Source: Clostridium sp. CAG:710
GTDB lineage: Bacteria; Bacillota_I; Bacilli_A; RF39; UBA660
NCBI GenBank assembly: GCA_000432595.1
Contig: HF996851.1
Location: 24,252 to 88,251, forward strand
Length of the DNA stretch: 64,000 nt
Reading direction: 5' to 3'
Below the pieces are notes generated by a model. The model saw nothing but the letters and a program-made list of their open reading frames with translations. It had not been told where the DNA came from and did not search any database. Position 1 is the stretch's first letter. Every line of letters starts with the position of its first letter. Below are positions 4,080 to 62,935 of the stretch, in pieces. Both the position numbers and the translations under genes were made by a program.

Positions 4080-5771
<1,692 letters not shown>

Positions 5772-5781
5772 TTTATAACCT

Positions 5782-5808
5782 GGGCAAGTAGTAAAATACT
5801 TGCCCTTT
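5782..5808 (+). terminator. eno terminator hairpin
   Basis: GGGCAAGTA (5782-5790) pairs with TACTTGCCC (5797-5805), followed by TTT. Confidence 0.7.
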
Positions 5809-5864
5809 ACACTTTTAACGTAAAGCATGTCCTAACAATGAATTCTAACTTGAAAAAGCGTTGG
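5806..5864 (+). repeat. direct repeat copy C (promoter-like module upstream of the S66 gene)
   Basis: 59 nt matching 6893-6951 at 56/59 positions. Continues into TTGAAA(5850-5855)-18 nt-TATAAA(5874-5879) and an AAAGGAG RBS. Confidence 0.9.
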
Positions 5865-5905
5865 AAGGAGGTCTATAAAAAAGATAGCATAAAGGAGTTA
5901 AAAAA

Positions 5906-6880
5906 ATGATTTATCCTAAAAAAATAAATAAAAATGATACAATAGAAATAATTTCACCGTCAAATGGCGTGAAAAGTAAAAAAATAAAAGAACTTGAAAA
6001 AGCAATAGAAAAATTAAATAGTTATGGATATAAAGTAGTCGAAGATAGATATGTAAGAAATGCTGAAAATGGTGTTAGTTCATCTGCATTTAATCGCTCA
6101 ATAGAGCTAAACAACGCAATTCAAAATAAAGGAATAAAAGCATTAATTGCATGTTCAGGTGGAGATTATTTAGTTCAAATTATGGATTTAATAAGTTTTG
6201 ATCAACTGAAAAAAAATATAAAGTGGATACAAGGTCAATCCGATATTACGCCTTTGTTATTTTATATAACAACTAAATTGGATATTGCAACAATTTATAG
6301 TTTTAATGCCAAATCTTTTGGTAATAATAATTTACCAGAATTAATGATAGAAAATAACATGGAATTTTTAAATGGAAAAATGCCAAAACAAATTGAATAT
6401 GGATATAAAATAGATAATGATAAAATAGAACAACCATGGGAATGTATAACAGAGGATAGAAAATTTAAGGGAAGAATTATAGGAGGATGTCTAGATTCGT
6501 TAAAAGATATAATAGGGACAAAATATGATTGTGTAAAAAGCTTTATAAAGAAATATAAAGATGATGGAATAATTTGGTATTTTGATGTGGCAGAAATGAC
6601 AAATGAAGATATATTAAGAACAATGTGGCAATTTAAAAGTGCTGGATGGTTTATAGCCTGTAAAGGTATTTTATTTGGAAGAATAGAAAATGAAATCAAT
6701 TATACAGGTATAACACTAAAAGATGCAATTAACTATAATCTTTTTGATTTAAACATCCCAATTTTTATAAATACAGATATAGGACACACAAATCCAGTAT
6801 ATACAATAATTAATGGTTCAATTGTAAAAGTAATTAAAGATAAAGATAATAAGCATATTATGGAGACAATTTTTGAATGA
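5906..6880 (+). CDS. S66-family LD-carboxypeptidase (LdcA/MccF-like)
   Basis: IEIISPSNGV N-terminus, GGDYLVQIMD, IQGQSDITPLL (nucleophile Ser context) and DIGHTNP near the C-terminus. Confidence 0.8.
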   Translation: MIYPKKINKNDTIEIISPSNGVKSKKIKELEKAIEKLNSYGYKVVEDRYVRNAENGVSSSAFNRSIELNNAIQNKGIKALIACSGGDYLVQIMDLISFDQLKKNIKWIQGQSDITPLLFYITTKLDIATIYSFNAKSFGNNNLPELMIENNMEFLNGKMPKQIEYGYKIDNDKIEQPWECITEDRKFKGRIIGGCLDSLKDIIGTKYDCVKSFIKKYKDDGIIWYFDVAEMTNEDILRTMWQFKSAGWFIACKGILFGRIENEINYTGITLKDAINYNLFDLNIPIFINTDIGHTNPVYTIINGSIVKVIKDKDNKHIMETIFE

Positions 6881-6892
6881 AAATATTAATTT

Positions 6893-6951
6893 TTTACACT
6901 TTTAGTGTAAAGCATGCCCTAACAATGAATTCTAACTTGAAAAAGCGTTGG
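6893..6951 (+). repeat. direct repeat copy D (promoter-like module with G7 tract)
   Basis: 56/59 identical to 5806-5864. Followed by a G7 run (6950-6956) and TAAAAT (6964-6969). Confidence 0.9.
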
Positions 6952-6984
6952 GGGGGAGGAGTGTAAAATAAATATATAAAATAA

Positions 6985-7428
6985 GAAAGAAAAGAATTAA
7001 TTGAAAAAGGACTTCTAACTAAAAAAGATTATACAAATACTGATTATGAAGGAAAAGATGAATATACTTATTTAAGCCCATGTGTAGAATATCTATCTTG
7101 TGATGAAATGAAGTTTTATTCAAAAGAAGAAATTACTAATGTTTATAAAAAATATTTTGGTAAAGATAAGAAACTTGATTTAACCAACTATCCATACTAT
7201 TTAGAAAAAAATGACGTCGCATTTAATTATACATGCTATGGAGCACCGGATTCTATAGATCAGATTACTAAAATAGACAGTAGTATGCCTACAAAAAATA
7301 CAGTTATACTTACATACTTAACAAAAATTACTGAAGATGATAAGACTACCGAGGAAAAATTTTCATTAACATTTAAGAAAGAAGGTTCTAATTGGGTATA
7401 CTCTGATCATAAGAAAATACAAAATTAA
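6985..7428 (+). pseudogene. 5'-truncated remnant ORF (listed as 7108..7428)
   Basis: The frame is open from 6985 (ERKELIEKGLLTKKDY...) with no ATG/GTG/TTG or RBS until the internal ATG at 7108. Its upstream end abuts repeat copy D. Confidence 0.35.
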
Positions 7429-7501
7429 TGTTTATTTAATAATATAGAAGGCTTATATTGTTAAGTCTTCTTTTTTTTGATAAAATAATATTGGTGTTGA
7501 T

Positions 7502-7972
7502 ATGAAAGAAAAATTGAAAATTATTTTAATTACAAGTATTTGCGTTTTTTTTGATCAAATTATAAAGTATTTAATTGTATCAAATTTTACTTTATATAAA
7601 AAGAATCCAATTATAGAGGGATTCTTTAATATAACTTATGTACAAAATAGGGGGGCAGCATGGGGAATATTAAATAATAATATTATTTTACTTGTTGTAA
7701 TAACTGTGCTTGCACTTGGATTTATATGTAGTTTTATATTTAAAGAGTCCAACATTAAAAAACTTGATATAGTACTTTATGGAATGTTACTTGGTGGGAT
7801 AATTGGTAACTTTATTGATAGAATATTTAGAGGATATGTAATTGACTTTTTAGATTTTATTATATTTGGTTATGATTTTCCTGTCTTTAATATCGCAGAT
7901 ATGCTTATAGTTATAAGTGTTGGTATAATGATTATAACTTATTGGAGGAGTAGAAATGAAAATACAGAGTAA
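7502..7972 (+). CDS. lspA: lipoprotein signal peptidase II
   Basis: VQNRGAAWGIL and FPVFNIADMLIVISVG motifs, four hydrophobic segments. Confidence 0.9.
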   Translation: MKEKLKIILITSICVFFDQIIKYLIVSNFTLYKKNPIIEGFFNITYVQNRGAAWGILNNNIILLVVITVLALGFICSFIFKESNIKKLDIVLYGMLLGGIIGNFIDRIFRGYVIDFLDFIIFGYDFPVFNIADMLIVISVGIMIITYWRSRNENTE

Positions 7973-8840
7973 AGAAGAAAATATTAGATTAGATCAGTAT
8001 TTAGCACGTGAATTAGATATTTCACGTAGTAAAATTCAAAAGGATATAAAAGAAGGATTAGTTAAAGTAAATGGTAAAAATGTAAACAGCAGTTTTTTAT
8101 TAAGTATTGATGATGAGATTGAAATTACTAAGAGGAATTCAAAACCATCTACAGTAGAACCATTAGATATTCCGCTAGATATAGTATATGAAGATGAATA
8201 CCTACTTGTTATTAATAAACAAAGTGGACTTGTTGTTCACCCGGCACCAGGACATTACACAGATACTTTAGTTAATGCATTAACTAATAAGTTTAAATTA
8301 TCCAATATAGATAATGAAAGACCTGGTATAGTACACAGAATTGATAAAGATACTAGTGGTTTAATGCTAGTTGCGAAAGACGATAAAACGCACGAATTGT
8401 TATCAGAAATGATTAAAAATAAAGAGGTTGAAAGAGTATATTGGGCTATAGTTGATGGAGTTATAAAACATGACACCGGTACAATAGATGCACCTATTGG
8501 AAGAGACCCTAATAATAGGCAAAAAATGTGCGTTACAGATAAATGCAGTAAAGAAGCTATAACAAATTTTAAAGTATTAAAAAGATTTGAAAAAAATACT
8601 TTAGTTGAGTGTAAACTAGATACTGGCAGAACTCATCAAATAAGAGTTCACTTTAATTACATTGGATATCCAGTACATGGTGATCCTGTATATGGAAGAA
8701 AAAGCAGCGTAGATTCATTTGGGCAATATCTTCATTCCAAAACCATTAGATTTGTTCATCCTATCACAAAAGAAGAATTGTTCTTTGATTCACCACTTCC
8801 ACCAGAGTTTGTCAAAAAACTTGAAAGTCTAGAACAGTAG
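7956..8840 (+). CDS. rluD: RluA-family 23S rRNA pseudouridine synthase (RluD-like)
   Basis: S4-like N-terminus (RLDQYLA), catalytic HRIDKDTSGLMLVAK and GRTHQIRVH. lspA-rluD synteny. Confidence 0.88.
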   Translation: MKIQSKEENIRLDQYLARELDISRSKIQKDIKEGLVKVNGKNVNSSFLLSIDDEIEITKRNSKPSTVEPLDIPLDIVYEDEYLLVINKQSGLVVHPAPGHYTDTLVNALTNKFKLSNIDNERPGIVHRIDKDTSGLMLVAKDDKTHELLSEMIKNKEVERVYWAIVDGVIKHDTGTIDAPIGRDPNNRQKMCVTDKCSKEAITNFKVLKRFEKNTLVECKLDTGRTHQIRVHFNYIGYPVHGDPVYGRKSSVDSFGQYLHSKTIRFVHPITKEELFFDSPLPPEFVKKLESLEQ

Positions 8841-8849
8841 TGTTATAAT
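8821..8849 (+). promoter_or_regulatory. candidate sigma-A promoter for the triple-HTH operon
   Basis: TTGAAA (8821-8826), 17-nt spacer, TG at 8841-8842 and TATAAT (8844-8849), i.e. an extended -10 TGtTATAAT. Confidence 0.5.
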
Positions 8850-8875
8850 AATTCCCAATTAGAGGGGGAATAGTA

Positions 8876-9445
8876 ATGCTAAATAATGTAGTTAAGGTAT
8901 TAATGGCCGCAAATGATTTAACGCCAACGGATATTATTTCGTCAAGTGGTATACCAAAGTCTTCCTTTTATAAAGATGGTGGTCTAAATATTGAAGAGAT
9001 TTCTTCTATATTTAATATATCAGATATTAATGTGGCTATATTAAATAGACTTGATGATAATGCCTATTCATATAAACAATTACTTTTTGAAGCTTTAAGA
9101 TGTTATTTATATAATTCTTCTATTTCTAACAGTAAGGGTGAATGCCATAGAGGAAAAGCTATAAAGTCAATTAGAAAAGCTGAAGGATTAAACATATCAG
9201 AGGCCTCAAAGATAACTGGAATTGCAACTTCAATTATTTGTCAAACTGAAAAAGGTCACATAGAGTTTTCTCTAAACAATATAAGAAAATATTCTAAAAC
9301 ATTTGATATTTTATCCAGTGAAATAGTAAGACTATTGGAACTAGAAGAGGATGGATACTCTTATCCTGAATTACTTTTTGAAGTATTAGGATACTATTTT
9401 GAAAAGCATCCAGAAGAAAAACAAAAACAAAAAGTAATGAAATAG
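8876..9445 (+). CDS. double XRE-like HTH module protein, paralogue 1
   Basis: Two ~90-aa modules, each an HTH-like segment followed by ...(D/E)(D/E)xGYSYxxLLFExLxxY. GAGGGGG RBS. Confidence 0.7.
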   Translation: MLNNVVKVLMAANDLTPTDIISSSGIPKSSFYKDGGLNIEEISSIFNISDINVAILNRLDDNAYSYKQLLFEALRCYLYNSSISNSKGECHRGKAIKSIRKAEGLNISEASKITGIATSIICQTEKGHIEFSLNNIRKYSKTFDILSSEIVRLLELEEDGYSYPELLFEVLGYYFEKHPEEKQKQKVMK

Positions 9446-22663: not shown

Positions 22664-23035
22664 ATGAATTTAGATTTATTAAAATTTGCATTAGAAGACT
22701 CTTGGAATAGGGATACTTGTTATCCATTTGTTAGTTGGGATAGTAGTAATCCAAGTGTTGGTCAAGATGAAGTTACTTCACTTGTTGTAAACGATTTTTT
22801 AGGCGGAGAGATAATTAAAAGTATTGATGAAGATGGCATTCATTATTATAACTTAGTAGGGGAAGAACCACTTGATTTTACAAATCAAACCTCACTAGTA
22901 AAAGGAGATATAGTATCTAGAAAAGAATTATTAAAAAACAGAAATACAGCGCTTAGATATTTCATATTATCAGAATGCGTTAAAGATTCGATGCAAAATA
23001 ATTCTAAGGTAAAAGAAAAAGTGTATAAGATATAA
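22664..23035 (+). CDS. hypothetical protein, possibly YunG-like
   Basis: WNRDTCYPFVSWDSSNPSVGQDEVTSLVVNDFLGGEI...HYYNL resembles the YunG pattern as I recall it. Not verified. Confidence 0.45.
   Translation: MNLDLLKFALEDSWNRDTCYPFVSWDSSNPSVGQDEVTSLVVNDFLGGEIIKSIDEDGIHYYNLVGEEPLDFTNQTSLVKGDIVSRKELLKNRNTALRYFILSECVKDSMQNNSKVKEKVYKI
23012..23031 (+). repeat. 20-bp direct repeat, left copy
   Basis: aaagaaaaagtgtataagat is identical to 24964-24983. Confidence 0.95.
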
Positions 23036-23038
23036 CAT

Positions 23039-23062
23039 AGAGCGAAATTTTGCTCTTTTTTT
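23039..23062 (+). terminator. terminator after the YunG-like gene
   Basis: AGAGC (23039-23043) pairs with GCTCT (23052-23056), then T7. Confidence 0.7.
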
Positions 23063-23197
23063 AATGCATTGTTAAATAAATAATTGCCTACTTAATGGTT
23101 TCAATTGTATATTTTTCCTCTCTCACTTGTCTACTTTAAGCTTATCACTACAATTTAAATAAAAATTTTACCCTTTACACCAAACAAATATTCTATC

Positions 23198-23227
23198 TTG
23201 ATTTTCAATGGGGGGGGGGTGTATACT
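23198..23227 (+). promoter_or_regulatory. promoter-like module with G10 tract (copy A)
   Basis: TTGATT (23198-23203), an 18-nt spacer holding G10 (23210-23219), then TATACT (23222-23227). AAGGAAGG RBS and ATG 23264 lie downstream. Confidence 0.5.
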
Positions 23228-23263
23228 GATTATAGATTAAAATAAGGAAGGTACGAATGCAAA

Positions 23264-24952
23264 ATGAGAGATAGAAAGAAAAGAAATATTATAATTGGTG
23301 CTTTATGCTGCCTACTAGTATTTATGGGAATTGGTTATGCAATATTATCACAAACCCTAAATATAAGTGGTACAGCTAATATGCAAGGTAATTGGAGTGT
23401 AAAAATAACTAATATGAAGTTATTAGAAGCTAATAAAACAGGAAGGGCAGAGAATGTATCAAATACTTTCACCGATACTACTGCATCATTTGAAGCAAAC
23501 TTATGGATGCCAGGAGATTCTATTGAATATGAAGTAACAGTAGAGAATCAAGGCAATATAGATGCAGTATTAAAAGATATAATTCAAACAAAAACAAATA
23601 AAGATAAAAATCTTAAATTTAGTAATAGCTTAATAGGAACAGAAGTATTAACTTCAGGTTCAAAAATGAGTTTTACAATGAAAGTTGAAATTCCAGAAGA
23701 AGCAGAAACACTACCAGAAGTAAAAGAATCAAAATATGAAATACAATTAATTTATATTCAGTATAATGGAGGAGAATATACACCACCCACACAATCCATT
23801 GGGACTCTAGCAGAAAGAATTCTAGCAGACAATACAGCATTACCAGATACAAATATAGATTTTTCCGAGATAAGTAGTGATACAAATGGAAAGGGATTAT
23901 ACTATACAAATAAAAATACAGAAGATAATAAAACGACATATTACTTTAGAGGTGATATTACTAACAATTATGTTAAGTTTGCAACTCAGACTAAAAATAC
24001 ATGTAAATATAATGGCAAGGACATAGCATATTATGATCCTACAAATGGGGTACTTGAATATAATCCAATAGAAGCACAATGCTTATCAACAAATGTATGT
24101 GTAACTACTAGTGTCCTTGGCAATTTTGTTGGTTTTGATGAAGCAACGTGCGTAGATGGGGGTGGTACATTTACACCAGACAAGGCAATATTCACACAAA
24201 ATACAGCCGAAGATATTGTATGGAGAATCATAAGAATAAATGAAGATGGAAGCGTAAGACTTATTACTGAAAATCCAGTGGGAAGTAGTGCATATAATGC
24301 CATATATCGTGATAATGCATATGCTGGATATATGTATGGTGCAACGGGCTCATCGACATATAAAGAGACCCATAAAAATACAAATAACAGTACAGTAAAG
24401 ACATACCTAGATAATTGGTATAAAACCAATCTAAATGGTTATACTTCATATATGTCTACTACTGCAGGCTTTTGTAATGATAGAAGCATTGCTCCAACTT
24501 CTAAGACATGGAGTAATGATGATACTGCATTAGGCTATGAGAGGAAAACGACATATTATGGTGCATATAATAGATTAAAAAATACACATCAACCGCAGTT
24601 TGCATGTCCAGAAATAAATGATTTATTTACAACAACTGCAAGTTCAAACGGCAACAAAGCTTTAACATATCCAGTTGGGTTATTAACAGCAGACGAAATT
24701 TCATATGCCGGAAGTACATATTTTAAATCAGATGACAACTATTTAGATACTACTGCTTATTGGACAATGTCACCACGACAATTTAGTGGTTCTACTGCCG
24801 AAGAAGACAATGATCTCTATATTTTTGATGAGGCACTATCCGGAACAATTCCAGGGGTTATTTTTGGTGTACGTCCTGTAATTAATCTATCAGATGATGT
24901 TGGCGTAGTAAGCGGTGATGGAACAAAAGATAGTCCATATGTAGTAAAATAA
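23264..24952 (+). CDS. secreted/surface protein: TasA/camelysin-like N-terminal module plus a C-terminal domain of the type often fused to Firmicute pilins
   Basis: Signal/anchor MRDRKKRNIIIGALCCLLVFMGIGYA, then LSQTLNISGTAN...FEANLWMPGDSIEYEVTVENQGNIDAVL. C-terminal NNYVKF...VWRIIRINEDGSVRLI...YWTMSP...VRPVINL...GDGTKDSPY. Confidence 0.7.
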   Translation: MRDRKKRNIIIGALCCLLVFMGIGYAILSQTLNISGTANMQGNWSVKITNMKLLEANKTGRAENVSNTFTDTTASFEANLWMPGDSIEYEVTVENQGNIDAVLKDIIQTKTNKDKNLKFSNSLIGTEVLTSGSKMSFTMKVEIPEEAETLPEVKESKYEIQLIYIQYNGGEYTPPTQSIGTLAERILADNTALPDTNIDFSEISSDTNGKGLYYTNKNTEDNKTTYYFRGDITNNYVKFATQTKNTCKYNGKDIAYYDPTNGVLEYNPIEAQCLSTNVCVTTSVLGNFVGFDEATCVDGGGTFTPDKAIFTQNTAEDIVWRIIRINEDGSVRLITENPVGSSAYNAIYRDNAYAGYMYGATGSSTYKETHKNTNNSTVKTYLDNWYKTNLNGYTSYMSTTAGFCNDRSIAPTSKTWSNDDTALGYERKTTYYGAYNRLKNTHQPQFACPEINDLFTTTASSNGNKALTYPVGLLTADEISYAGSTYFKSDDNYLDTTAYWTMSPRQFSGSTAEEDNDLYIFDEALSGTIPGVIFGVRPVINLSDDVGVVSGDGTKDSPYVVK

Positions 24953-42593: not shown

Positions 42594-45146
42594 ATGAAAC
42601 GTAGTGAAGTAGATAGAAGTAAACTTAGTCCAATGATGGTTCAATACATGAATATAAAAGATAAATATAATGATACCATTATATTTTTTAGGCTTGGAGA
42701 TTTCTATGAAATGTTTTTTGAAGATGCAATACTATGCAGTAGAGAACTAGAACTTGCATTGACCGGTAAAAATGCTGGACTTGATGAGAGAGTCCCAATG
42801 TGTGGAATTCCATATCACGCTTATAATACATATCTAGATAAATTAATTGAAAAAGGATATAAAGTTGCGATCTGTGAACAGTTAAGCGATCCAAAAACAA
42901 CTAAAGGTATGGTAGAAAGAGATGTTATTCAAGTAGTAACCAGAGGTACTATAATGGATAATTCATTAAAAGAAAAAGACAGCAACTATATTGGTAATAT
43001 CTATGATTTTGAATATTGCTATGGAATGAGTTATGTAGATATAACGACTGGACATTTTTACGTTTTAATGCTTTCAAATGATAAAAATAAAATTATAGAA
43101 GAAATAATAAACCGTGGTATTAATGAGGTAATAGTTAATAGTAAAATTGATAGAGAAATATTAAATACATTAAGAGAAACTTATCATATATTAGTTACAA
43201 TTACAGATAATATATATGAAGAAGAAAACTATAATAAAATCTATAGTGATATAGAAGATGTTAGATTAGTTACTACTATTAAACATTTATTGAAGTATAT
43301 AATTTCTGTAAAAAAAGGAGATCTATCTCACTTACAAAAAGCAAAAGTAATTAACCTAAATAATTATTTATTATTTGATGTACACACAAAAAAGAATCTT
43401 GAATTAACTATGACTATGAGGCTAAGAGAAAGAACTTATTCGCTTTTATGGCTATTAGATAAAACCAAAACCGCAATGGGAGGAAGATTTTTAAAAGAAT
43501 CAATTGAAAACCCTCTTACTGATGAAGTAGAGATAAAAAGAAGATATTCCATTATTGAAAAATTACTTACAGAATTCATTTTAAGAGAAGATTTAAGAAA
43601 TGCGCTAAGTAATGTATATGACTTAGAAAGACTATCTTCTAGAATATGTTATGGCAATTTAAATGCAAGAGACCTAATTCAGCTTAAAACAACACTTAAA
43701 GCCTTACCAGAGATTAACAATATACTTACAGAATTAAAATATGGGAAAAATATTGAAACTTTAGATGAATTATATAACTTGCTTTCCTCATCAATTAATG
43801 AAACTCCACCGCTAAGTATTAAAGAAGGCTCATTAATTAAAGAAGGATATAGTAAAGAATTAGATGAACTTAGAAGTATTAGTAGTGGCTCAAAAGATTT
43901 TATATTAAATCTAGAACAAGAAGAAAGAGAAAGAACAGGTATTAAAAATCTAAGAGTTGGTTTCAATAAAGTTTTTGGTTACTATATTGAAGTAAGTAAG
44001 GGAAGCATACCATTGGTAAAAGATGAGTTCAATTATGAAAGAAGACAAACACTTTCTAATTGTGAAAGATTTATTACTCCTCTTTTAAAAGAAAAAGAAA
44101 ATATAATTTTAGGTGCTGAAGAGAAAATAATCAATTTAGAATACAAATTATTTATGGATATTAGAGATAAAGTAAGAGAATATATTCCAACTATTCAAGC
44201 AATATCAAAAGTAATTGCAGAAGTTGATATGATGGTATCACTAGCTGTTGTAGCAGAAGAAAATAACTATGTAAAACCAGTAATTAATCATTCAAGAATT
44301 GTAGATATTAGAGATGGAAGACACCCTGTAGTGGAACACGTTAATAAATCAGATTATGTTCCTAATGACATAGTAATGAAAGACGGAGTAAATATTTTAC
44401 TTATCACAGGACCTAATATGGCAGGTAAATCAACTTATATGAGACAATTTGCGATTATAGTAATAATGGCACAGATGGGTTCTTTTGTACCAGCTAAAAG
44501 TTGTAATATTCCTATATTTGATAGAATATTTACAAGAATTGGCGCAAGTGATGATCTAGTTAGTGGAGATTCTACATTCATGATAGAAATGAAAGAAGCA
44601 AACATGGCAATTAGTGAAGCAACAGAAAATAGTTTAATACTATTTGATGAATTAGGAAGAGGAACAGCTACATATGATGGAATGAGTCTAGCACAAGCAA
44701 TACTTGAATATATTCACGATAAAATAAAAGCAAAGACTTTGTTTTCAACACATTATCATGAATTAACCTCATTATCAGGAGATCTTAGAAATTTAAGAAA
44801 CGTACACGTTAGTGCAGTAGAAGAAGATGGAAAAATAACATTTTTACATAAAGTTAAAATGGGTGCAGTTGATAGAAGCTATGGTATACATGTAGCCTCA
44901 TTAGCACATTTACCTAAATCATTAATTGATAGAGCAAGCGAAATATTAAGTGTATATGAAAATAAAAACAATAAAAAGCAACCATTTACACAAACAACTC
45001 TTTTCTTACAACCAGAAGAAGAACCAACAAAAGAAAGTAAAATAGAAGAAGAATTAAAACAAATAAACCCACTTGAGGTTACACCAATTGAAGCTTTAAA
45101 TATTCTATATAAATTAAAACAAGAATTAGAAGATAAAAATAAATAA
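42594..45146 (+). CDS. mutS: DNA mismatch repair protein MutS
   Basis: SPMMVQYMNIKDKYNDTIIFFRLGDFYEMFFEDA, Walker A GPNMAGKSTYMRQ, DELGRGTATYDG, STHYHEL. Confidence 0.96.
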   Translation: MKRSEVDRSKLSPMMVQYMNIKDKYNDTIIFFRLGDFYEMFFEDAILCSRELELALTGKNAGLDERVPMCGIPYHAYNTYLDKLIEKGYKVAICEQLSDPKTTKGMVERDVIQVVTRGTIMDNSLKEKDSNYIGNIYDFEYCYGMSYVDITTGHFYVLMLSNDKNKIIEEIINRGINEVIVNSKIDREILNTLRETYHILVTITDNIYEEENYNKIYSDIEDVRLVTTIKHLLKYIISVKKGDLSHLQKAKVINLNNYLLFDVHTKKNLELTMTMRLRERTYSLLWLLDKTKTAMGGRFLKESIENPLTDEVEIKRRYSIIEKLLTEFILREDLRNALSNVYDLERLSSRICYGNLNARDLIQLKTTLKALPEINNILTELKYGKNIETLDELYNLLSSSINETPPLSIKEGSLIKEGYSKELDELRSISSGSKDFILNLEQEERERTGIKNLRVGFNKVFGYYIEVSKGSIPLVKDEFNYERRQTLSNCERFITPLLKEKENIILGAEEKIINLEYKLFMDIRDKVREYIPTIQAISKVIAEVDMMVSLAVVAEENNYVKPVINHSRIVDIRDGRHPVVEHVNKSDYVPNDIVMKDGVNILLITGPNMAGKSTYMRQFAIIVIMAQMGSFVPAKSCNIPIFDRIFTRIGASDDLVSGDSTFMIEMKEANMAISEATENSLILFDELGRGTATYDGMSLAQAILEYIHDKIKAKTLFSTHYHELTSLSGDLRNLRNVHVSAVEEDGKITFLHKVKMGAVDRSYGIHVASLAHLPKSLIDRASEILSVYENKNNKKQPFTQTTLFLQPEEEPTKESKIEEELKQINPLEVTPIEALNILYKLKQELEDKNK

Positions 45147-53491: not shown

Positions 53492-54052
53492 TTATTTTGG
53501 ATATATTTAACTTGTAAAATATAATGATATTAATGTATAATAATAATGTTAAGATAAAGGAGTAGTAAAATGAAAGATAGAAAGAAAAGAAATATTATAA
53601 TTGGCTCTTTATGCTCTTTGCTTGTATTTATGGGTATTGGTTATGCAGTATTATCGCAGACTCTAAATATAAGTGGTACAGCAAATATGAAAGGTACTTG
53701 GGATATAAAAATAACTGATATAAGTGAAGCAAGTAGAACTGGAAAAGCAGATTCAGGTACACCAACTATTTCATCAAGTGGAGTATCTGCATCATTTGAA
53801 GCAAACTTATGGATGCCAGGAGACTCAATAACTTATAATATTACAGTAAAGAATAATGGTAATATAGATGCAGCTTTAAAAGAGTTAGTACCATCAGTAG
53901 AAAATGGCGTACAACAAGTAAAATTCAGTAATAATGCAGTACAAGGAAAAGTATTAAGGCAAAGTGAAAGTTATACTTTTCAAGTAAGTGTAGTATTTGA
54001 TGAAGATGCAACTGAGATACCACAAGATTCAAAAACAAATCCACCAAAATAC

Positions 54053-54148
54053 ACAATATCATTAACATTTGTACAATATACAGGAAATAGTTTATATACA
54101 CCAACAAATGAAACAACAGATAATTCATGTTTTGTGATTAATACAGCA
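54053..54148 (+). repeat. tandem duplication, unit 1
   Basis: 96 nt matching 54150-54245 at 92/96 positions. The period is 97 nt, with a junction T at 54149. Confidence 0.9.
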
Positions 54149-54149
54149 T

Positions 54150-54245
54150 ACAATATCATTAACATTTGTACAATATACAGGGAATAGTTTATATACACCA
54201 GTTAATGAAACAACAGATAATTCATGTTTTGTGATTAATACAGCA
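54150..54245 (+). repeat. tandem duplication, unit 2
   Basis: See unit 1. Differences are A/G in caggaaat vs cagggaat, and ACA/GTT in ccaacaaatg vs ccagttaatg. Confidence 0.9.
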
Positions 54246-55290
54246 GGAGAAATAACAGGATATGATTATAATTGTGGTACAGTAGTAACAGTACCTGCAG
54301 AAATTGATGGAATTCAAGTTAAAAGTATAACATCTATTGCTTTTGCTGAAACCAGTTCTTATAATGTATGGATGTATGGCAAAGAAGAAAGTGCAGATGT
54401 AACAAAAACTTATTACATTTTTAAAGATCAAAATGCAAGAGCATTATTCTTAGAATCACAAGGAATAACTCAAGAAGAGTTAGATGCTGAAGAAAACACA
54501 TATAATTATTTAAAAGGTGATCCTGCATTACAGAATATTGATTTGGGAATTTTTGAAATGGGCGTGAATATTTTTAGGAATTCAACTGGTAAAATAATTA
54601 CAGACACTTATGGCAATGTTGCACTTACAGAATTAGACCTAAGTCATGCTGATTATCTGGAAAATGTTGAATGTTTAGATTGGGTTCCAAACTTAAAAAC
54701 ATTGAATTTAAATTCAACATCTGAAACATTAAAAATTAATAACACAATAAATTATGCATATTATTTTAATAACCCTTATCTCAATTATCAAGATGATAAC
54801 ATAAATGAAACTCTTCAACAATATATAAAAACATTAGATTTGTTAGTTGTAAATGCGGATAATTTTGCTACACTAAGTTCTTCAAGGTTAGAAATGTTTG
54901 TGGGAAACCAAAAAATTAAAACACTTATTGTATTGGATGGAAAAAATAAACATACAATTGAAAGCTCTAATCTTTTTCAATCGACTACTTCAGAAATCAA
55001 AAATGTTATTATTGATGATGGTATAGTTGAAATAAAAAATAGCGTTTTTTCAAGCCACAGTATTGAACACGTGACACTTCCAGCAACGTTAAAAACAATT
55101 GGCAGTTACACTTTTGCTTTTAATAAATTAACAAACACAGGTCTTGGTAAACTTCCTAGTTCATTAACTAGCTTATCTACATATGCATTTAGTGATAATC
55201 CCGATTTAACTCAAATAACATTAACTTCTCCAAAAGACTTGCCTGGTTGGCCAAATGGTGGAACAGTTGATGGTAAGACAGTAATATATG

Positions 55291-55317
55291 AAAGATAGAT
55301 TTTTCTATCTTTTTTTC
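55291..55317 (+). terminator. terminator after the LRR gene
   Basis: AAAGATAGA (55291-55299) pairs with TCTATCTTT (55304-55312), then a T run. Confidence 0.85.
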
Positions 55318-58961: not shown

Positions 58962-59035
58962 GGGACTTAAAAAGAGTTCCTTTTTTTATTCAAAATTTAA
59001 TGTCTACTTGCTTTGTATCAAGCAAATATTCCGTC

Positions 59036-59065
59036 TTGATTTTCAATGGGGGAGGGGTGTATACT
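59036..59065 (+). promoter_or_regulatory. promoter-like module with an interrupted G tract (copy B)
   Basis: TTGATT (59036-59041), an 18-nt spacer holding GGGGGAGGGG (59048-59057), then TATACT (59060-59065). 40/43 identical to the copy A core. Confidence 0.5.
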
Positions 59066-59098: not shown

Positions 59099-62000
59099 AT
59101 GGATAGTAAAGATAAAGGCTTAACCCTAAGTCAAAAGATTGTTACAGACGCAGTACTAAGAAAGAATGATTATAATAAAAGAGAATGGTTATCCAGAAGA
59201 TATGGAAAAGGTAGAAAACTTGATCAAGCATTTGAAAAAATCTTTTCATCAATTTCATATAATGGATTTAAAGTTGAATTACTACTAAAATTGAATGCAG
59301 GTGATGATAGGATTTCAGATGTAATTGAGAATGAAATAGATTCTACAGGAGACTTTCATTACATAAAAAATATGATACTTCCAGAAATCAGGCATGTAAA
59401 AGATGAAAAAAAGAGATTTGATTTGATAAAAAAAGTGGACAATAAAGTCATTACAATATTAGGTAAAAATACCAATTATGAAAATAAATATATTTTTGAT
59501 TTGAGGGATGTTACAGATTACATTAATGATTTGTCTAAGATGCTTGAAGATTTTAACGAACCAGAATTTATATTATCATTTTTAAGCTTAGACAGATATG
59601 ATCTAGGTTCAATTGTGAAAAAAATGTCAACATTGACTATTGATGAGAAATTGCTTTCATCATTTCCTAAGGTTGCACAAACTATAGATGAAAATAATGA
59701 TGCTAAAATAGAATCAATTTGCCAATATTTTTATCATTTGGATGATAAACAAAAGTTGATACTTATTAATTGCATGCCTGAGAATAAGCTTCCATACATA
59801 TTATTGGATAGTGATTTTTTATGCCAATTGCCTTCCCTAAAAGAAAAAATAAATAATGCATCAAACAAAGATGAAAATGATTTGAAATTATTGTATGAGA
59901 AAATATCAAGATTTGAATTGTCAAAAGATGCTCCAGAAGGAGTAAAAAAAATGTATTATGCTCATAATTATGGTAGATATTCTGACATACTCGAACAATT
60001 AAAAATCCCATCTAATATTGAATTCCTGATAGAAAAAAATATTGATTTAAATCTAATTTTTAGTGTCAAAGATAATGAACAAAATTATGTAAATGTAAAT
60101 GCCATTGCTAGTCAATTCGATGATAAAAAAGATGCAATAAAAACAATTGCTTTATATAAAGCAATAACTTATTATAAAGATTATGTTGATAGTAAAGATC
60201 CAAAGGAAAGCATATATCAGCATATATATAATAGTATTATTGCTGGATCAAAATATTTAGAGAATATGCCAGAAGATTTTAAGAAAGAACACCCTGATTT
60301 ATTTTTAAGTCAAGATACTCCAGAAGAATTGAGAGAGTTGCTTTGCAATAGAGGATTGACATCCGAAAAATTGTTAGAACATCCAGAGTGGATTGATGTT
60401 TTGGCTGAAGGAAGCATTAATTTAAATGCGATATTCCATTTTGGAAGAAATCATAAAATAAATAATGAAGAATCAATTAATGATTTTGAGACTCGTAAAG
60501 AAACAATCAAGTGTATTGCAATATATAAACAAATGAACTGTAGCTTAAGTAGTACAATCATAAATAAAGAATCCATTTATCAAGAAATGAGAAGCGCGAT
60601 TTTACATGGCCGCGCCTATCCAGAAGATATGCCAGAAGATTTTAAGAAAGCACACCCTGATTTATTTTTAAGTCAAGATGCTCCAGAAAAGTTAAAAAAC
60701 TATTTTTACGATTCTAATGGTGGATGTTTTATGTCATTCAAAAAAATACAAGAGCATAAAGATTGGTTACCATTTATTACGGGAAAAAGATTAACTGCTT
60801 CGTTGCTTAGGGATCCAACTCATAATAAAAAAATGATGAAATATTTTGAAGTTTTTGGAGAAGAAAAGGCTATCAAATTAGGAATTTCTAGAACCGAAAC
60901 TATTGAACAAATGGTATTTTCAAATCAAGCGGATTTGATGAAAGCATGGTATGACAAAACAGGTCAAAAATTTATACCGGATTTTGTAATAATGCAAAAT
61001 TTCAAAATAGAAGAGGCTGATAAATTTTTAACATCTGGTAAAATTTGGAGTAACTTAATGAAAATCAAAAGCTTTACTCAAACTCCAGAAGCAAGAGAGG
61101 CTATGTTAAAACTTGCCTATTCATTTGGTGCCTTTGATCAAGATCAAAGAGGAATTAAAAAATTACAAGATTTATTAGTGGGACTACCTAAGAAAATCGA
61201 TTTGGAGCAAGCACATATATTTGAGCAAATAGCTACACAAATTGATTACAATGGTCAAACGGATTTAATAGAGTCATTAAGGCAAGAAAATGTTGATATT
61301 GATTTTTCAAAAAATATATTTGAGCAAATATATAGAAAAAATGAAGACGGCTCTTATACTTTGACTATTAATGCTCAAAGTTGTCCTAAATCAGCACAGG
61401 CTATTAGAGGCGTTTTAGAAAAATTTAGAGAAGTACCAATGCTTACACCAGATAAAGCGCATCATTATCTAGGTGGTTTCAAATTAGAATATGATTCTGA
61501 TTTTAGGGAGTTTTTCTTATCGAATTTTGACATTATTATTGGCGATAGTAAGTATTTGTCACAAATTTCTGCAATACAACGTAGATTCAAAGAAATAAAA
61601 ACTAGATATTCAAATGTTAATTTAACATTGGATTTAGCCATGAGTTATATCAATAATAATAAATATGAAAATGTAAATACTGGAAACGAAAGAGTAACAC
61701 AAGTAGCAGGACTTCAAAATTATTCTCAGCAAGATTTTGAAATTCTTCAACAAATTTATAATTATGGCAAACAGAGAACGTTTAGCAGTATTCCTCGTAT
61801 TTCGTCAGATAAAAGTGTGAATCTTCCATCTGGAACTTATCATTATGAAATTTTGAGACTTGATGATCCTAGGGCAATGTCAATAGGTTTTGAAAGCGAT
61901 TGTTGTCAGAGATTAGGAGAACCTGCAGAAGTTTGCATGGAACATAGTATGGTTGATAAAAATGGAAGAGTATTTATTATAACAAATACTGCTGGAGAGA

Positions 62001-62935
62001 TAGTTGCCCAAAGTTGGGTATGGAGAAACAAAGATGTGTTGTGTTTTGATAATATAGAAGTTCCAGATCAAAAAATGTGGGATAATGGAATACAAAGAGG
62101 ACGAGAAGATTCAGGTATAAGAAATCAATTTACTGATGATATATTAGCAATTTATAAGATGGTTGCTCATGAATTGATAGAAGTAGATGAAAAAGTTTAT
62201 AAGGAATTACTCGATAGTAGTAAAATTACACAAGAACAATATGAGGGATTAAGATTAGGAAAAATTACAGCTGGTCTTGGATATAGTAATATAAAAGGAT
62301 CATTAAAAACTTTGCCAATTGATAAAACAATTTTATCAAGACCATTACCTTTTGAAGGACCAGTCAAATTATCTAGAGGACTTTATACTAGCGATTCTAC
62401 TACTCAATATATTTTAGAAGAACGAGAAGATAGAAAAGATTTTGAGGGTGAAACACTTCCAGTGCACAGTGATACCTATATTGAATATAGCGATTCTAAT
62501 TTTGCAAAGAAATCTTTACTTACTTTGGAAAAATTAGAAATAGTTACCAAAGAAGATCCAAGGCATTTGGAAACAGCTGTTAGTGATCATACTGATCCAG
62601 AACATCTTGTTACTGAAATAGCGAAAAACTATGAATTAAACCCGGAAACCACAAGAATAGTAATGAATCCCAATTTTGCTATTATATATGATGTCAATGA
62701 TAATAAATTGGAAATAGGAGATTTGCTTTTTAACACTAAAATTAATAATGGAGAACAGCAAATGAATATTGAAAATCAAGTTGTAATGCAAATAAGATTA
62801 GCATTAGAACAAATTGCTAATAATAAAGAAGTTGATATATCTAACCTAGATGAAAAACAAAAAGAAATGTATGCTAAGGTTACTGGTTTAACAGAAGAAA
62901 TAGATATAGAAAGAGGTGTTGGTCATGCAAGATAA
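59099..62935 (+). CDS. giant hypothetical protein (1278 aa) with internal repeats
   Basis: Uninterrupted ORF with a GGAGAGG RBS and no TM or signal sequence. PEDFKK(E/A)HPDLFLSQD(T/A)PE repeats. Cys-rich C-terminal block GFESDCCQRLGEPAEVCMEHSM...AQSWVWRN. Confidence 0.7.
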   Translation: MDSKDKGLTLSQKIVTDAVLRKNDYNKREWLSRRYGKGRKLDQAFEKIFSSISYNGFKVELLLKLNAGDDRISDVIENEIDSTGDFHYIKNMILPEIRHVKDEKKRFDLIKKVDNKVITILGKNTNYENKYIFDLRDVTDYINDLSKMLEDFNEPEFILSFLSLDRYDLGSIVKKMSTLTIDEKLLSSFPKVAQTIDENNDAKIESICQYFYHLDDKQKLILINCMPENKLPYILLDSDFLCQLPSLKEKINNASNKDENDLKLLYEKISRFELSKDAPEGVKKMYYAHNYGRYSDILEQLKIPSNIEFLIEKNIDLNLIFSVKDNEQNYVNVNAIASQFDDKKDAIKTIALYKAITYYKDYVDSKDPKESIYQHIYNSIIAGSKYLENMPEDFKKEHPDLFLSQDTPEELRELLCNRGLTSEKLLEHPEWIDVLAEGSINLNAIFHFGRNHKINNEESINDFETRKETIKCIAIYKQMNCSLSSTIINKESIYQEMRSAILHGRAYPEDMPEDFKKAHPDLFLSQDAPEKLKNYFYDSNGGCFMSFKKIQEHKDWLPFITGKRLTASLLRDPTHNKKMMKYFEVFGEEKAIKLGISRTETIEQMVFSNQADLMKAWYDKTGQKFIPDFVIMQNFKIEEADKFLTSGKIWSNLMKIKSFTQTPEAREAMLKLAYSFGAFDQDQRGIKKLQDLLVGLPKKIDLEQAHIFEQIATQIDYNGQTDLIESLRQENVDIDFSKNIFEQIYRKNEDGSYTLTINAQSCPKSAQAIRGVLEKFREVPMLTPDKAHHYLGGFKLEYDSDFREFFLSNFDIIIGDSKYLSQISAIQRRFKEIKTRYSNVNLTLDLAMSYINNNKYENVNTGNERVTQVAGLQNYSQQDFEILQQIYNYGKQRTFSSIPRISSDKSVNLPSGTYHYEILRLDDPRAMSIGFESDCCQRLGEPAEVCMEHSMVDKNGRVFIITNTAGEIVAQSWVWRNKDVLCFDNIEVPDQKMWDNGIQRGREDSGIRNQFTDDILAIYKMVAHELIEVDEKVYKELLDSSKITQEQYEGLRLGKITAGLGYSNIKGSLKTLPIDKTILSRPLPFEGPVKLSRGLYTSDSTTQYILEEREDRKDFEGETLPVHSDTYIEYSDSNFAKKSLLTLEKLEIVTKEDPRHLETAVSDHTDPEHLVTEIAKNYELNPETTRIVMNPNFAIIYDVNDNKLEIGDLLFNTKINNGEQQMNIENQVVMQIRLALEQIANNKEVDISNLDEKQKEMYAKVTGLTEEIDIERGVGHAR
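60264..60326 (+). repeat. intragenic repeat, copy 1
   Basis: 63 nt, 61/63 identical to 60627-60689. Offset 363 nt, which is in frame. Confidence 0.85.
60627..60689 (+). repeat. intragenic repeat, copy 2
   Basis: See copy 1. Confidence 0.85.

Follow-up and report, generated by a model that had tools for sequence, protein, structure and literature searches.

Contingency loci are well known from a handful of cultured pathogens. In Neisseria meningitidis, the porA (poly-G) and opc (poly-C) promoters carry a homopolymer of ~9–14 nt between the −35 and −10 hexamers, and the gain or loss of one nucleotide makes transcription of a surface-protein gene graded or ON/OFF, with tract lengths that differ between strains. 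In the fim2 and fim3 promoters of Bordetella pertussis, a poly-C tract separates the site of the BvgA activator from the −10. Campylobacter jejuni, which lacks MutS and MutL, has poly-G contingency loci that lie mostly in coding regions and act through frameshifts. The mechanisms of SSR phase variation are summarized in a review (PMC11868660); as cited there, the work of Rosengarten and Wise (1990/1991) on the Vlp proteins of Mycoplasma hyorhinis describes a poly-A tract in each vlp promoter spacer. Our literature searches returned no description of SSR phase variation for uncultured gut Bacilli lineages, that is, for MAGs labelled Bacilli, Tenericutes, or "Mycoplasma sp. CAG". The window analyzed here is the whole stretch of 64,000 nucleotides of Clostridium sp. 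CAG:710 (contig HF996851.1). From comparisons made at the sequence level, we consider it likely that a G10 tract in this window is a slippage-prone repeat in the spacer of a sigma-A-type promoter, where changes in the tract would alter the spacing of the hexamers and their contact with RNA polymerase.

The tract precedes a gene for a 562-aa protein (23264..24952, plus strand). Upstream of it, a YunG-like gene (22664–23035; YunG by Pfam match) ends in an intrinsic terminator at 23039..23066 (plus strand), a 7-bp stem followed by a T-run, so the 562-aa gene needs a promoter of its own within ~200 nt. This interval contains a −35-like hexamer, TTGATT (23198..23203), and a −10-like hexamer, TATACT (23222..23227), separated by a putative promoter spacer of 18 nt (23204..23221) that consists of TTCAAT, the G10 homopolymer (23210..23219), and TG. 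A transcription start is predicted near 23234–23235. It would be followed by a Shine–Dalgarno sequence, AAGGAAGG (23244..23251), kept as AAGGAAGG, GAAGAGG, or AAGAGAGG in other cassette copies, and by the ATG at 23264, 36 nt past the −10. All of these elements lie on the plus strand, and the coordinates that an earlier, sequence-only reading had given for the tract, the hexamers, the 18-nt spacer, the ribosome-binding site, and the start codon were confirmed throughout. The TTGATT/TATACT pair agrees with the sigma-70 consensus in 9 of 12 bases, a score reached by 7 sites in the region where 5.5 would be expected; because a hexamer scan of this kind does not rise above the shuffled expectation, we relied on comparative conservation instead. 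By that measure, the CTTG core of the −35 is invariant in six aligned cassette types, and TATAAT occupies the position of the −10 in other cassette types and species. An invertible promoter was rejected, as the sole flanking inverted repeat (TACACC/GGTGTA) is not conserved in other copies.

The tract is exceptional in its own genome. The GC content of the window is 27%, G runs of at least 10 are expected 0.001 times under a first-order Markov model, and G10 is the longest homopolymer of the whole window. Five overlapping matches to G7 were observed in the window against 0.23 in shuffles. Runs of A or T of at least 9 are absent from the 64-kb window against ~13 expected, so the genome avoids long homopolymers; A runs of at least 8 number 12 across the whole window against 26 expected. 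The depletion of long A/T homopolymers suggests genome-wide selection against slippery tracts.

A separate observation concerns the leader. A 6-nt insertion (TACGAA, 23252–23257), seen as an indel relative to contig L089, lies between the Shine–Dalgarno sequence and the start codon and creates an out-of-frame ATG at 23257. The resulting 5-codon uORF (ATG CAA AAT GAG AGA TAG, 23257..23274, plus strand) overlaps the main start, and its ATG has the better Shine–Dalgarno distance of the two. In most other strains, a C/T difference makes this position a minimal ATG–TAA (ATGTAAAATG variants).

To compare the tract across strains, we located orthologous promoters by exact-protein look-up and by a flank-pattern scan of metagenome contigs. 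Among 11 assemblies with identical flanks, the tract is G8 in one (L002), G9 in four (L083, L100, L101, and L103), G10 in five (the window, L001, L097, L098, and L099), and G11 in one (L104), all of these lengths being short-read metagenome consensus, where homopolymers are error-prone (coverage of L002 is ~8×), and L083 and L101, at 0 SNPs apart in the flanks, being possibly the same strain rather than independent. The corresponding spacers measure 16, 17, 18, and 19 nt, and the G run alone differs among them. The tract is the sole indel in 4.7 kb relative to L002 (68 SNPs, ~99% identity) and in 10.5 kb relative to L083 (98 SNPs, ~99% identity); L001 and the window show 0 indels in 7.7 kb. 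Tract length does not follow the SNP distances between strains. L098 (G10) and L104 (G11) are separated by 1 SNP in 1.24 kb, and among strains with the P0064 allele, tract length does not follow a 6-nt indel that lies 620 nt from it. Together, these findings indicate that the tract undergoes repeated change, at a pace above that of point mutation. T7 and A7 homopolymers in the same alignments yield no separate indel column, with at most one T7/T6 difference beside the 6-nt indel. The sequence-only reading had proposed a hypermutable tract, a proposal that invariant length between strains would have contradicted; with lengths from G8 to G11, the proposal survives.

The same behavior is found at other promoters, and it depends on whether the G run is uninterrupted. 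Pure tracts of at least 9 varied in all five comparisons of identical proteins across samples, covering about three species: the window protein, P0001 (10, 10, and 8); P0064 (9, 10, and 11); P0028, at the enolase–lspA site (10, 10, and 9); P0089, from another species (11 and 10); and P0093 (12 and 10). Of six assemblies, the window among them, only L192 has G8 in place of the shorter G7 at 6950. Interrupted or G-free promoters were invariant in each of four comparisons, namely cassette A1 with GGAAGGAGG (8 of 8), cassette B2 at 59035 with GGGGGAGGGG (2 of 2), P0037 with GGGTGGGGG (3 of 3), and P0047 with A6GG, counted as G-free (2 of 2). Variability limited to pure tracts is the behavior expected of slipped-strand mispairing and is hard to square with random assembly error. 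The phase-variation reading proposed earlier thus gains support on two counts, in that length varies between near-identical strains and that variation needs an uninterrupted tract. The locked variants also share a single spacing: the spacer is 18 nt in every one of GGATGGGGGG, GGATGTGGGG, GGGGGTGAGG, GGGGGAGGGG, and GGGTGGGGG, and it is fixed at 17 nt in the G-free version of the cassette.

These observations are consistent with a mechanism in which slipped-strand mispairing at replication would add or remove single Gs, each change shifting the distance between −35 and −10 by 1 bp, such that RNA polymerase would contact both hexamers better or worse. The tract would then provide heritable, reversible, and stochastic volume or ON–OFF control. 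Given that locked cassettes are fixed at 18 nt and the G-free version at 17 nt, we infer an active range of 17–18 nt, in which case the G10 allele of the window is most likely "on". G9 would also be on and possibly stronger than G10, and G8 or G11 is most likely weak or off. Spacers of 16–19 nt are no less compatible with a graded control of volume than with strict ON/OFF switching, and the observed range may never fully silence the promoter. The proposal presumes that the hexamers are a promoter in use, that tract length would affect its transcription, and that switching would take place within a single population. MutS is encoded in the window at 42594–45146; mismatch repair should therefore dampen slippage, which must operate despite it. 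Slippage in Neisseria likewise operates despite mismatch repair.

The tract and its hexamers are part of a larger conserved unit. Module B (23182..23263, plus strand) is a conserved promoter and 5′-UTR cassette whose homology between genomic contexts begins ~14 nt 5′ of the −35; the sequence upstream of AACAAATATTC is unrelated among module B loci. Across unrelated genomic contexts, the homology covers the 5′ UTR and reaches the codons of the signal peptide, a pattern suggestive of a promoter-plus-leader cassette. We recovered 19 further loci with an intact module of this type, plus two contigs that break at the cassette. An exact-pattern scan for module B in the GTDB representative genomes gave no match, and either the species representative is without the exact cassette or the species is missing from that collection. 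The sequence-only reading had pointed to four copies in the window that differ exactly at the G segment. Four G-rich strings do exist, at 5849, 6936, 23197, and 59035, but they form two pairs, type A (5849 and 6936) and type B (23197 and 59035), and the members of each pair show further differences beyond the G segment (88% identity over 72 nt for 5793/6880; 82% over 85 nt for 23173/59011), which makes this a weak argument for hypermutability.

The two types have in common only a scaffold of ATTCTAnCTTGA, ~8 nt, a G-rich segment, and TAnAnT, and an nhmmer profile of module B gave no match in type-A modules or in the loci of other species. By direct alignment, all six cassette types align on the invariant CTTG core and the TAnAnT hexamer. 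Hybrid promoters bridge types A and B, with TTGAAA-AACCGTT-G9/10-TG-TATAAT in L201–203 and an interrupted form in L108–110. In related MAG species, the layout upstream of the same protein family is TTGnnn, 2–13 nt, G7–G12, and TATAAT; the DNA of these loci is no longer alignable, and the proteins are 33–48% identical. Twelve of 20 tracts of at least G7 in other species lie between TTGnnn and a −10 hexamer, with spacers of 17–20 nt, upstream of family members, and the −10 is a perfect TATAAT in 11 of these 12 and GATAAT in L197. In L003–L082 (460 kb, other species), every run of at least 7 that was counted is G on the gene strand, and no C run of at least 7 was found. The conserved order of −35, G tract, and −10 in paralogs and other species supports the placement of the tract in a candidate promoter spacer. 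That a perfect mononucleotide run is kept at the same promoter position in species so distant, although their genomes avoid homopolymers elsewhere, argues for selection on the tract itself. Most of the assembled spacers in other species are 19–20 nt long, which could fit a family that is "mostly OFF" or could mean that the −35 assignment there is wrong. In other species, some G10–G12 tracts lie outside promoter spacers (L035 at 2054 and 4015; L053 at 46 and 2405). They seem to occupy the loop of long inverted repeats (AAGGCTTTATACTTCT ... AGAAGTAAAAATAAAGCCTT), a different kind of element that occurs more than once in a contig.

Other copies in the window differ in the genes that they precede. 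The second module-B promoter (59036..59065, plus strand) has the locked, interrupted tract GGGGGAGGGG (59048–59057) in an 18-nt spacer and is identical in L188. It lies upstream of a 1278-aa ORF (59099–62935) that has no Pfam or NCBIfam match and lacks a signal peptide, so use of the cassette is not confined to surface proteins. This ORF contains internal repeats spaced 363 nt (60254–60349 and 60617–60712). Cassette A1 (5850..5879, plus strand) combines TTGAAA, an 18-nt spacer with the interrupted GGAAGGAGG, and TATAAA upstream of an LD-carboxypeptidase gene (5906–6880), and the duplicate A2 (6937..6969, plus strand) combines TTGAAA, a 21-nt spacer with G7 (6950–6956), and TAAAAT. At 21-nt spacing, A2 is probably non-functional. 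The LD-carboxypeptidase gene is thus bracketed by two 88%-identical type-A cassettes (5793–5864 and 6880–6951). At the enolase–lspA site in L201–L204, the place of the LD-carboxypeptidase is taken by a family gene of 567 aa whose promoter has a pure G9/G10 tract, and the site is a cassette-replacement hot spot. A tblastn search for the remnant of a family gene after cassette A2 found none.

A paralog of the 562-aa protein at 53570–55298 shares the N-terminal domain and has an LRR-like C-terminus. A 97-nt tandem duplication (54053–54149 and 54150–54246) splits it into ORFs of 205 aa and 355 aa, and removing one 97-nt copy restores an ORF of 543 aa. The ortholog in L093 has a single 97-nt copy and a module-B G10 promoter; in the window, the upstream region of the paralog is different and has no G tract.

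The 562-aa protein consists of a signal/anchor helix, a beta-sandwich domain, and a conserved C-terminal domain. Its N-terminus, MRDRKKRNIIIGALCCLLVFMGIGYA, has a basic stretch followed by a hydrophobic helix and contains no lipobox of the form [LVI][ASTVI][GAS]C, the residues before Cys being G-A-L and A-L-C. Of the earlier description of the product as a secreted surface protein, export is well supported, and surface location is presumed. Pfam and NCBIfam searches with the protein gave sub-threshold matches only, and a profile search of the PDB gave no sequence match. A Foldseek search of the PDB with an AlphaFold model of moderate quality (pLDDT 66.5) gave none at E ≤ 1e-3 and generic beta-sandwich matches above that value. 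The beta-sandwich domain has a weak, sub-threshold similarity to TasA/BsaA. Assignment as a SipW-dependent TasA/BsaA matrix protein was rejected on profile scores below the curated cut-offs (18.7 bits against 60 for TIGR04090; 15.4 against 450 for TasA NF046066, the latter on the paralog). The protein has more than 4,296 homologs at E ≤ 1e-5, which makes for a very large family; none of them has a Pfam-annotated function, and all are named only "hypothetical protein" in their sources. Nearly all relatives of the protein and of MutS are found in MAGs of uncultured organisms from the guts of animals and humans, under the labels Bacilli bacterium, Tenericutes, Mycoplasma sp. CAG:472, or Erysipelotrichaceae; for MutS, identity to the closest match is 87%. 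An origin from a mobile element was rejected, as megablast of 15–35 kb against plasmids and phages gave no match and the region carries the chromosomal genes for enolase, MutS, DnaG, and RNase J.

The locus itself is hyperdiverse. Between 23264–24952 and the orthologous loci of L095 and L096–L110, the flanks are 98–99% identical and the gene alleles 73–92%, and alleles also differ in length (489 aa versus 562 aa). The upstream neighbor varies among a YunG gene, a 213-aa ORF, and DcuC, and L002 has a downstream insertion of an IS that encodes an rve transposase. The chromosomal sites that hold family genes are replacement hot spots.

In at least one related species (L200), the family is also a DGR target. 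P0096, which is 44% identical to the window protein, has its VR at the position homologous to window-protein residues 503–537. The VR (6521–6617) lies at the 3′ end of the gene and is followed by the TR (6806–6902), bAvd (7075–7419), and a reverse transcriptase (7403–8938), a complete DGR within the region 5001–8938; VR and TR are 82% identical, with mismatches at TR adenines. The promoter of P0096 also contains a G tract, G11, within a spacer of 19 nt. The window gene was rejected as a DGR target, there being no TR-like copy of 24740–24900 and no reverse transcriptase in the window. A broader proposal, which we put forward tentatively and at slightly less than even odds of being right, is that the tract is one instance of an anciently conserved poly-G promoter cassette by which a clade of uncultured, host-associated gut Bacilli stochastically switches members of a very large and wholly unannotated family of exported proteins. 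Mutagenesis of the C-terminal domain by DGRs (in some species) and the replacement of cassettes or alleles at fixed chromosomal sites would add to this, the whole amounting to a multi-layer system of surface variation.

Could the tract be truly invariant, with the length differences arising from sequencing or assembly through Illumina homopolymer indels, PCR stutter, or two-colour poly-G errors? The reliance on short-read consensus, at low coverage in some cases such as L002, leaves room for this explanation. So do three contigs (L088, L105, and L204) that end at or beside the G tract or cassette, an observation that fits either heterogeneity of the tract within samples or a multi-copy cassette repeat that breaks assemblies. 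We nevertheless judge an artefact very unlikely. Many independent studies have the tract in the interior of long contigs, bounded on either side by identical flanks, whereas two-colour poly-G errors arise at read ends and not between conserved flanks. The lengths also recur across samples (G9 four times and G10 five), the T7/A7 controls and the interrupted G-rich copies are stable, and the same position carries tracts in different species. A true promoter further upstream, with the poly-G transcribed as part of the 5′ leader and acting through RNA structure, transcriptional slippage, or an attenuator, seems to us about as unlikely, or slightly more so. Alternative hexamer pairs that could serve it are present at 23084 and at 23127 (TTGTCT-16-TACAAT), but they lie in sequence that is not conserved among the cassette copies, and the tracts of other species run straight into a perfect TATAAT. 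Action at the RNA level finds little encouragement either: Rfam gave no match at E ≤ 1 in 23030–23300, the whole window yielding one tRNA only at the gathering threshold, and the predicted fold of the tract region is less stable than that of shuffled controls (z = +1.31), results on which a structured RNA or riboswitch was rejected.

A third alternative takes the G-rich segment as a fixed structural or regulatory element of the promoter, for example, a site for the adjacent OmpR-type regulator or a spacer that tunes promoter strength, with the drift in length as tolerated noise. The 562-aa gene keeps its histidine kinase and OmpR-type response regulator neighbors even where the upstream side is rearranged, as this alternative would have it, although the cassettes at 59035, at the enolase–lspA site, and in L106 do not lie beside a two-component system. 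Similarly, G-richness is retained even in interrupted copies and tract lengths cluster tightly at 9–10, yet one family promoter appears to work without Gs (A6GG, in L106), and a perfect run of 9–12 across species is not what a fixed element would be expected to leave in a genome that avoids homopolymers. On balance, we regard a fixed element as unlikely and favor a slippage-prone spacer.

If a slippage-prone spacer is indeed what the tract provides, these gut bacteria vary exposed proteins stochastically, which would bear on immune (IgA) evasion, phage resistance, and strain persistence in the human gut. The signature of a −35, G(n), and TATAAT can be counted directly in metagenomic reads, and it would single out a family of over 4,000 unnamed members as likely interaction factors. 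It would also account for the tendency of assemblies from these genomes to break at sites of this kind. Should the multi-layer system also be real, it would resemble those that pathogenic mycoplasmas possess, here in abundant commensals for which metagenomes are the only source.

The mechanism proposed here is already known from porA, opc, vlp, and fim; what is new is its proposed occurrence in this organism and this gene family. Here as in C. jejuni, G9–G11 tracts of hypervariable length stand out in an AT-rich genome, and many loci per genome affect, or in the present case would affect, surface structures. Unlike the C. jejuni tracts, those described here lie in putative promoters, and the window contains a gene for MutS. 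As in fim2 and fim3, a long G/C homopolymer in the promoter region would set the spacing for transcription, and the fim product is likewise a surface structure; dependence on the BvgA activator is a feature of fim, and no activator dependence is known here. The Vlp system is closer in its host, a relative among the reduced-genome, host-associated Bacilli/Mollicutes, and in its design, with a homopolymer in the promoter spacer and a multigene family of exported proteins that has a promoter and signal-peptide block in common. The differences are that the tract here is poly-G, that the product, for want of a lipobox, is no lipoprotein, that the sequences are not homologous, and that the genes are dispersed; rather than a tandem cluster of the Vlp type, the window has one gene with a pure tract and one disrupted paralog 30 kb away. 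With porA and opc, the locus has in common a homopolymer between −35- and −10-like hexamers whose length varies among strains; the mechanism would be analogous, and the systems are not homologous. The host here is an unrelated, low-GC, uncultured lineage of gut Bacilli, and the protein family is unrelated; unlike the neisserial tracts, the tract here belongs to a cassette that is common to many paralogs and conserved across species.
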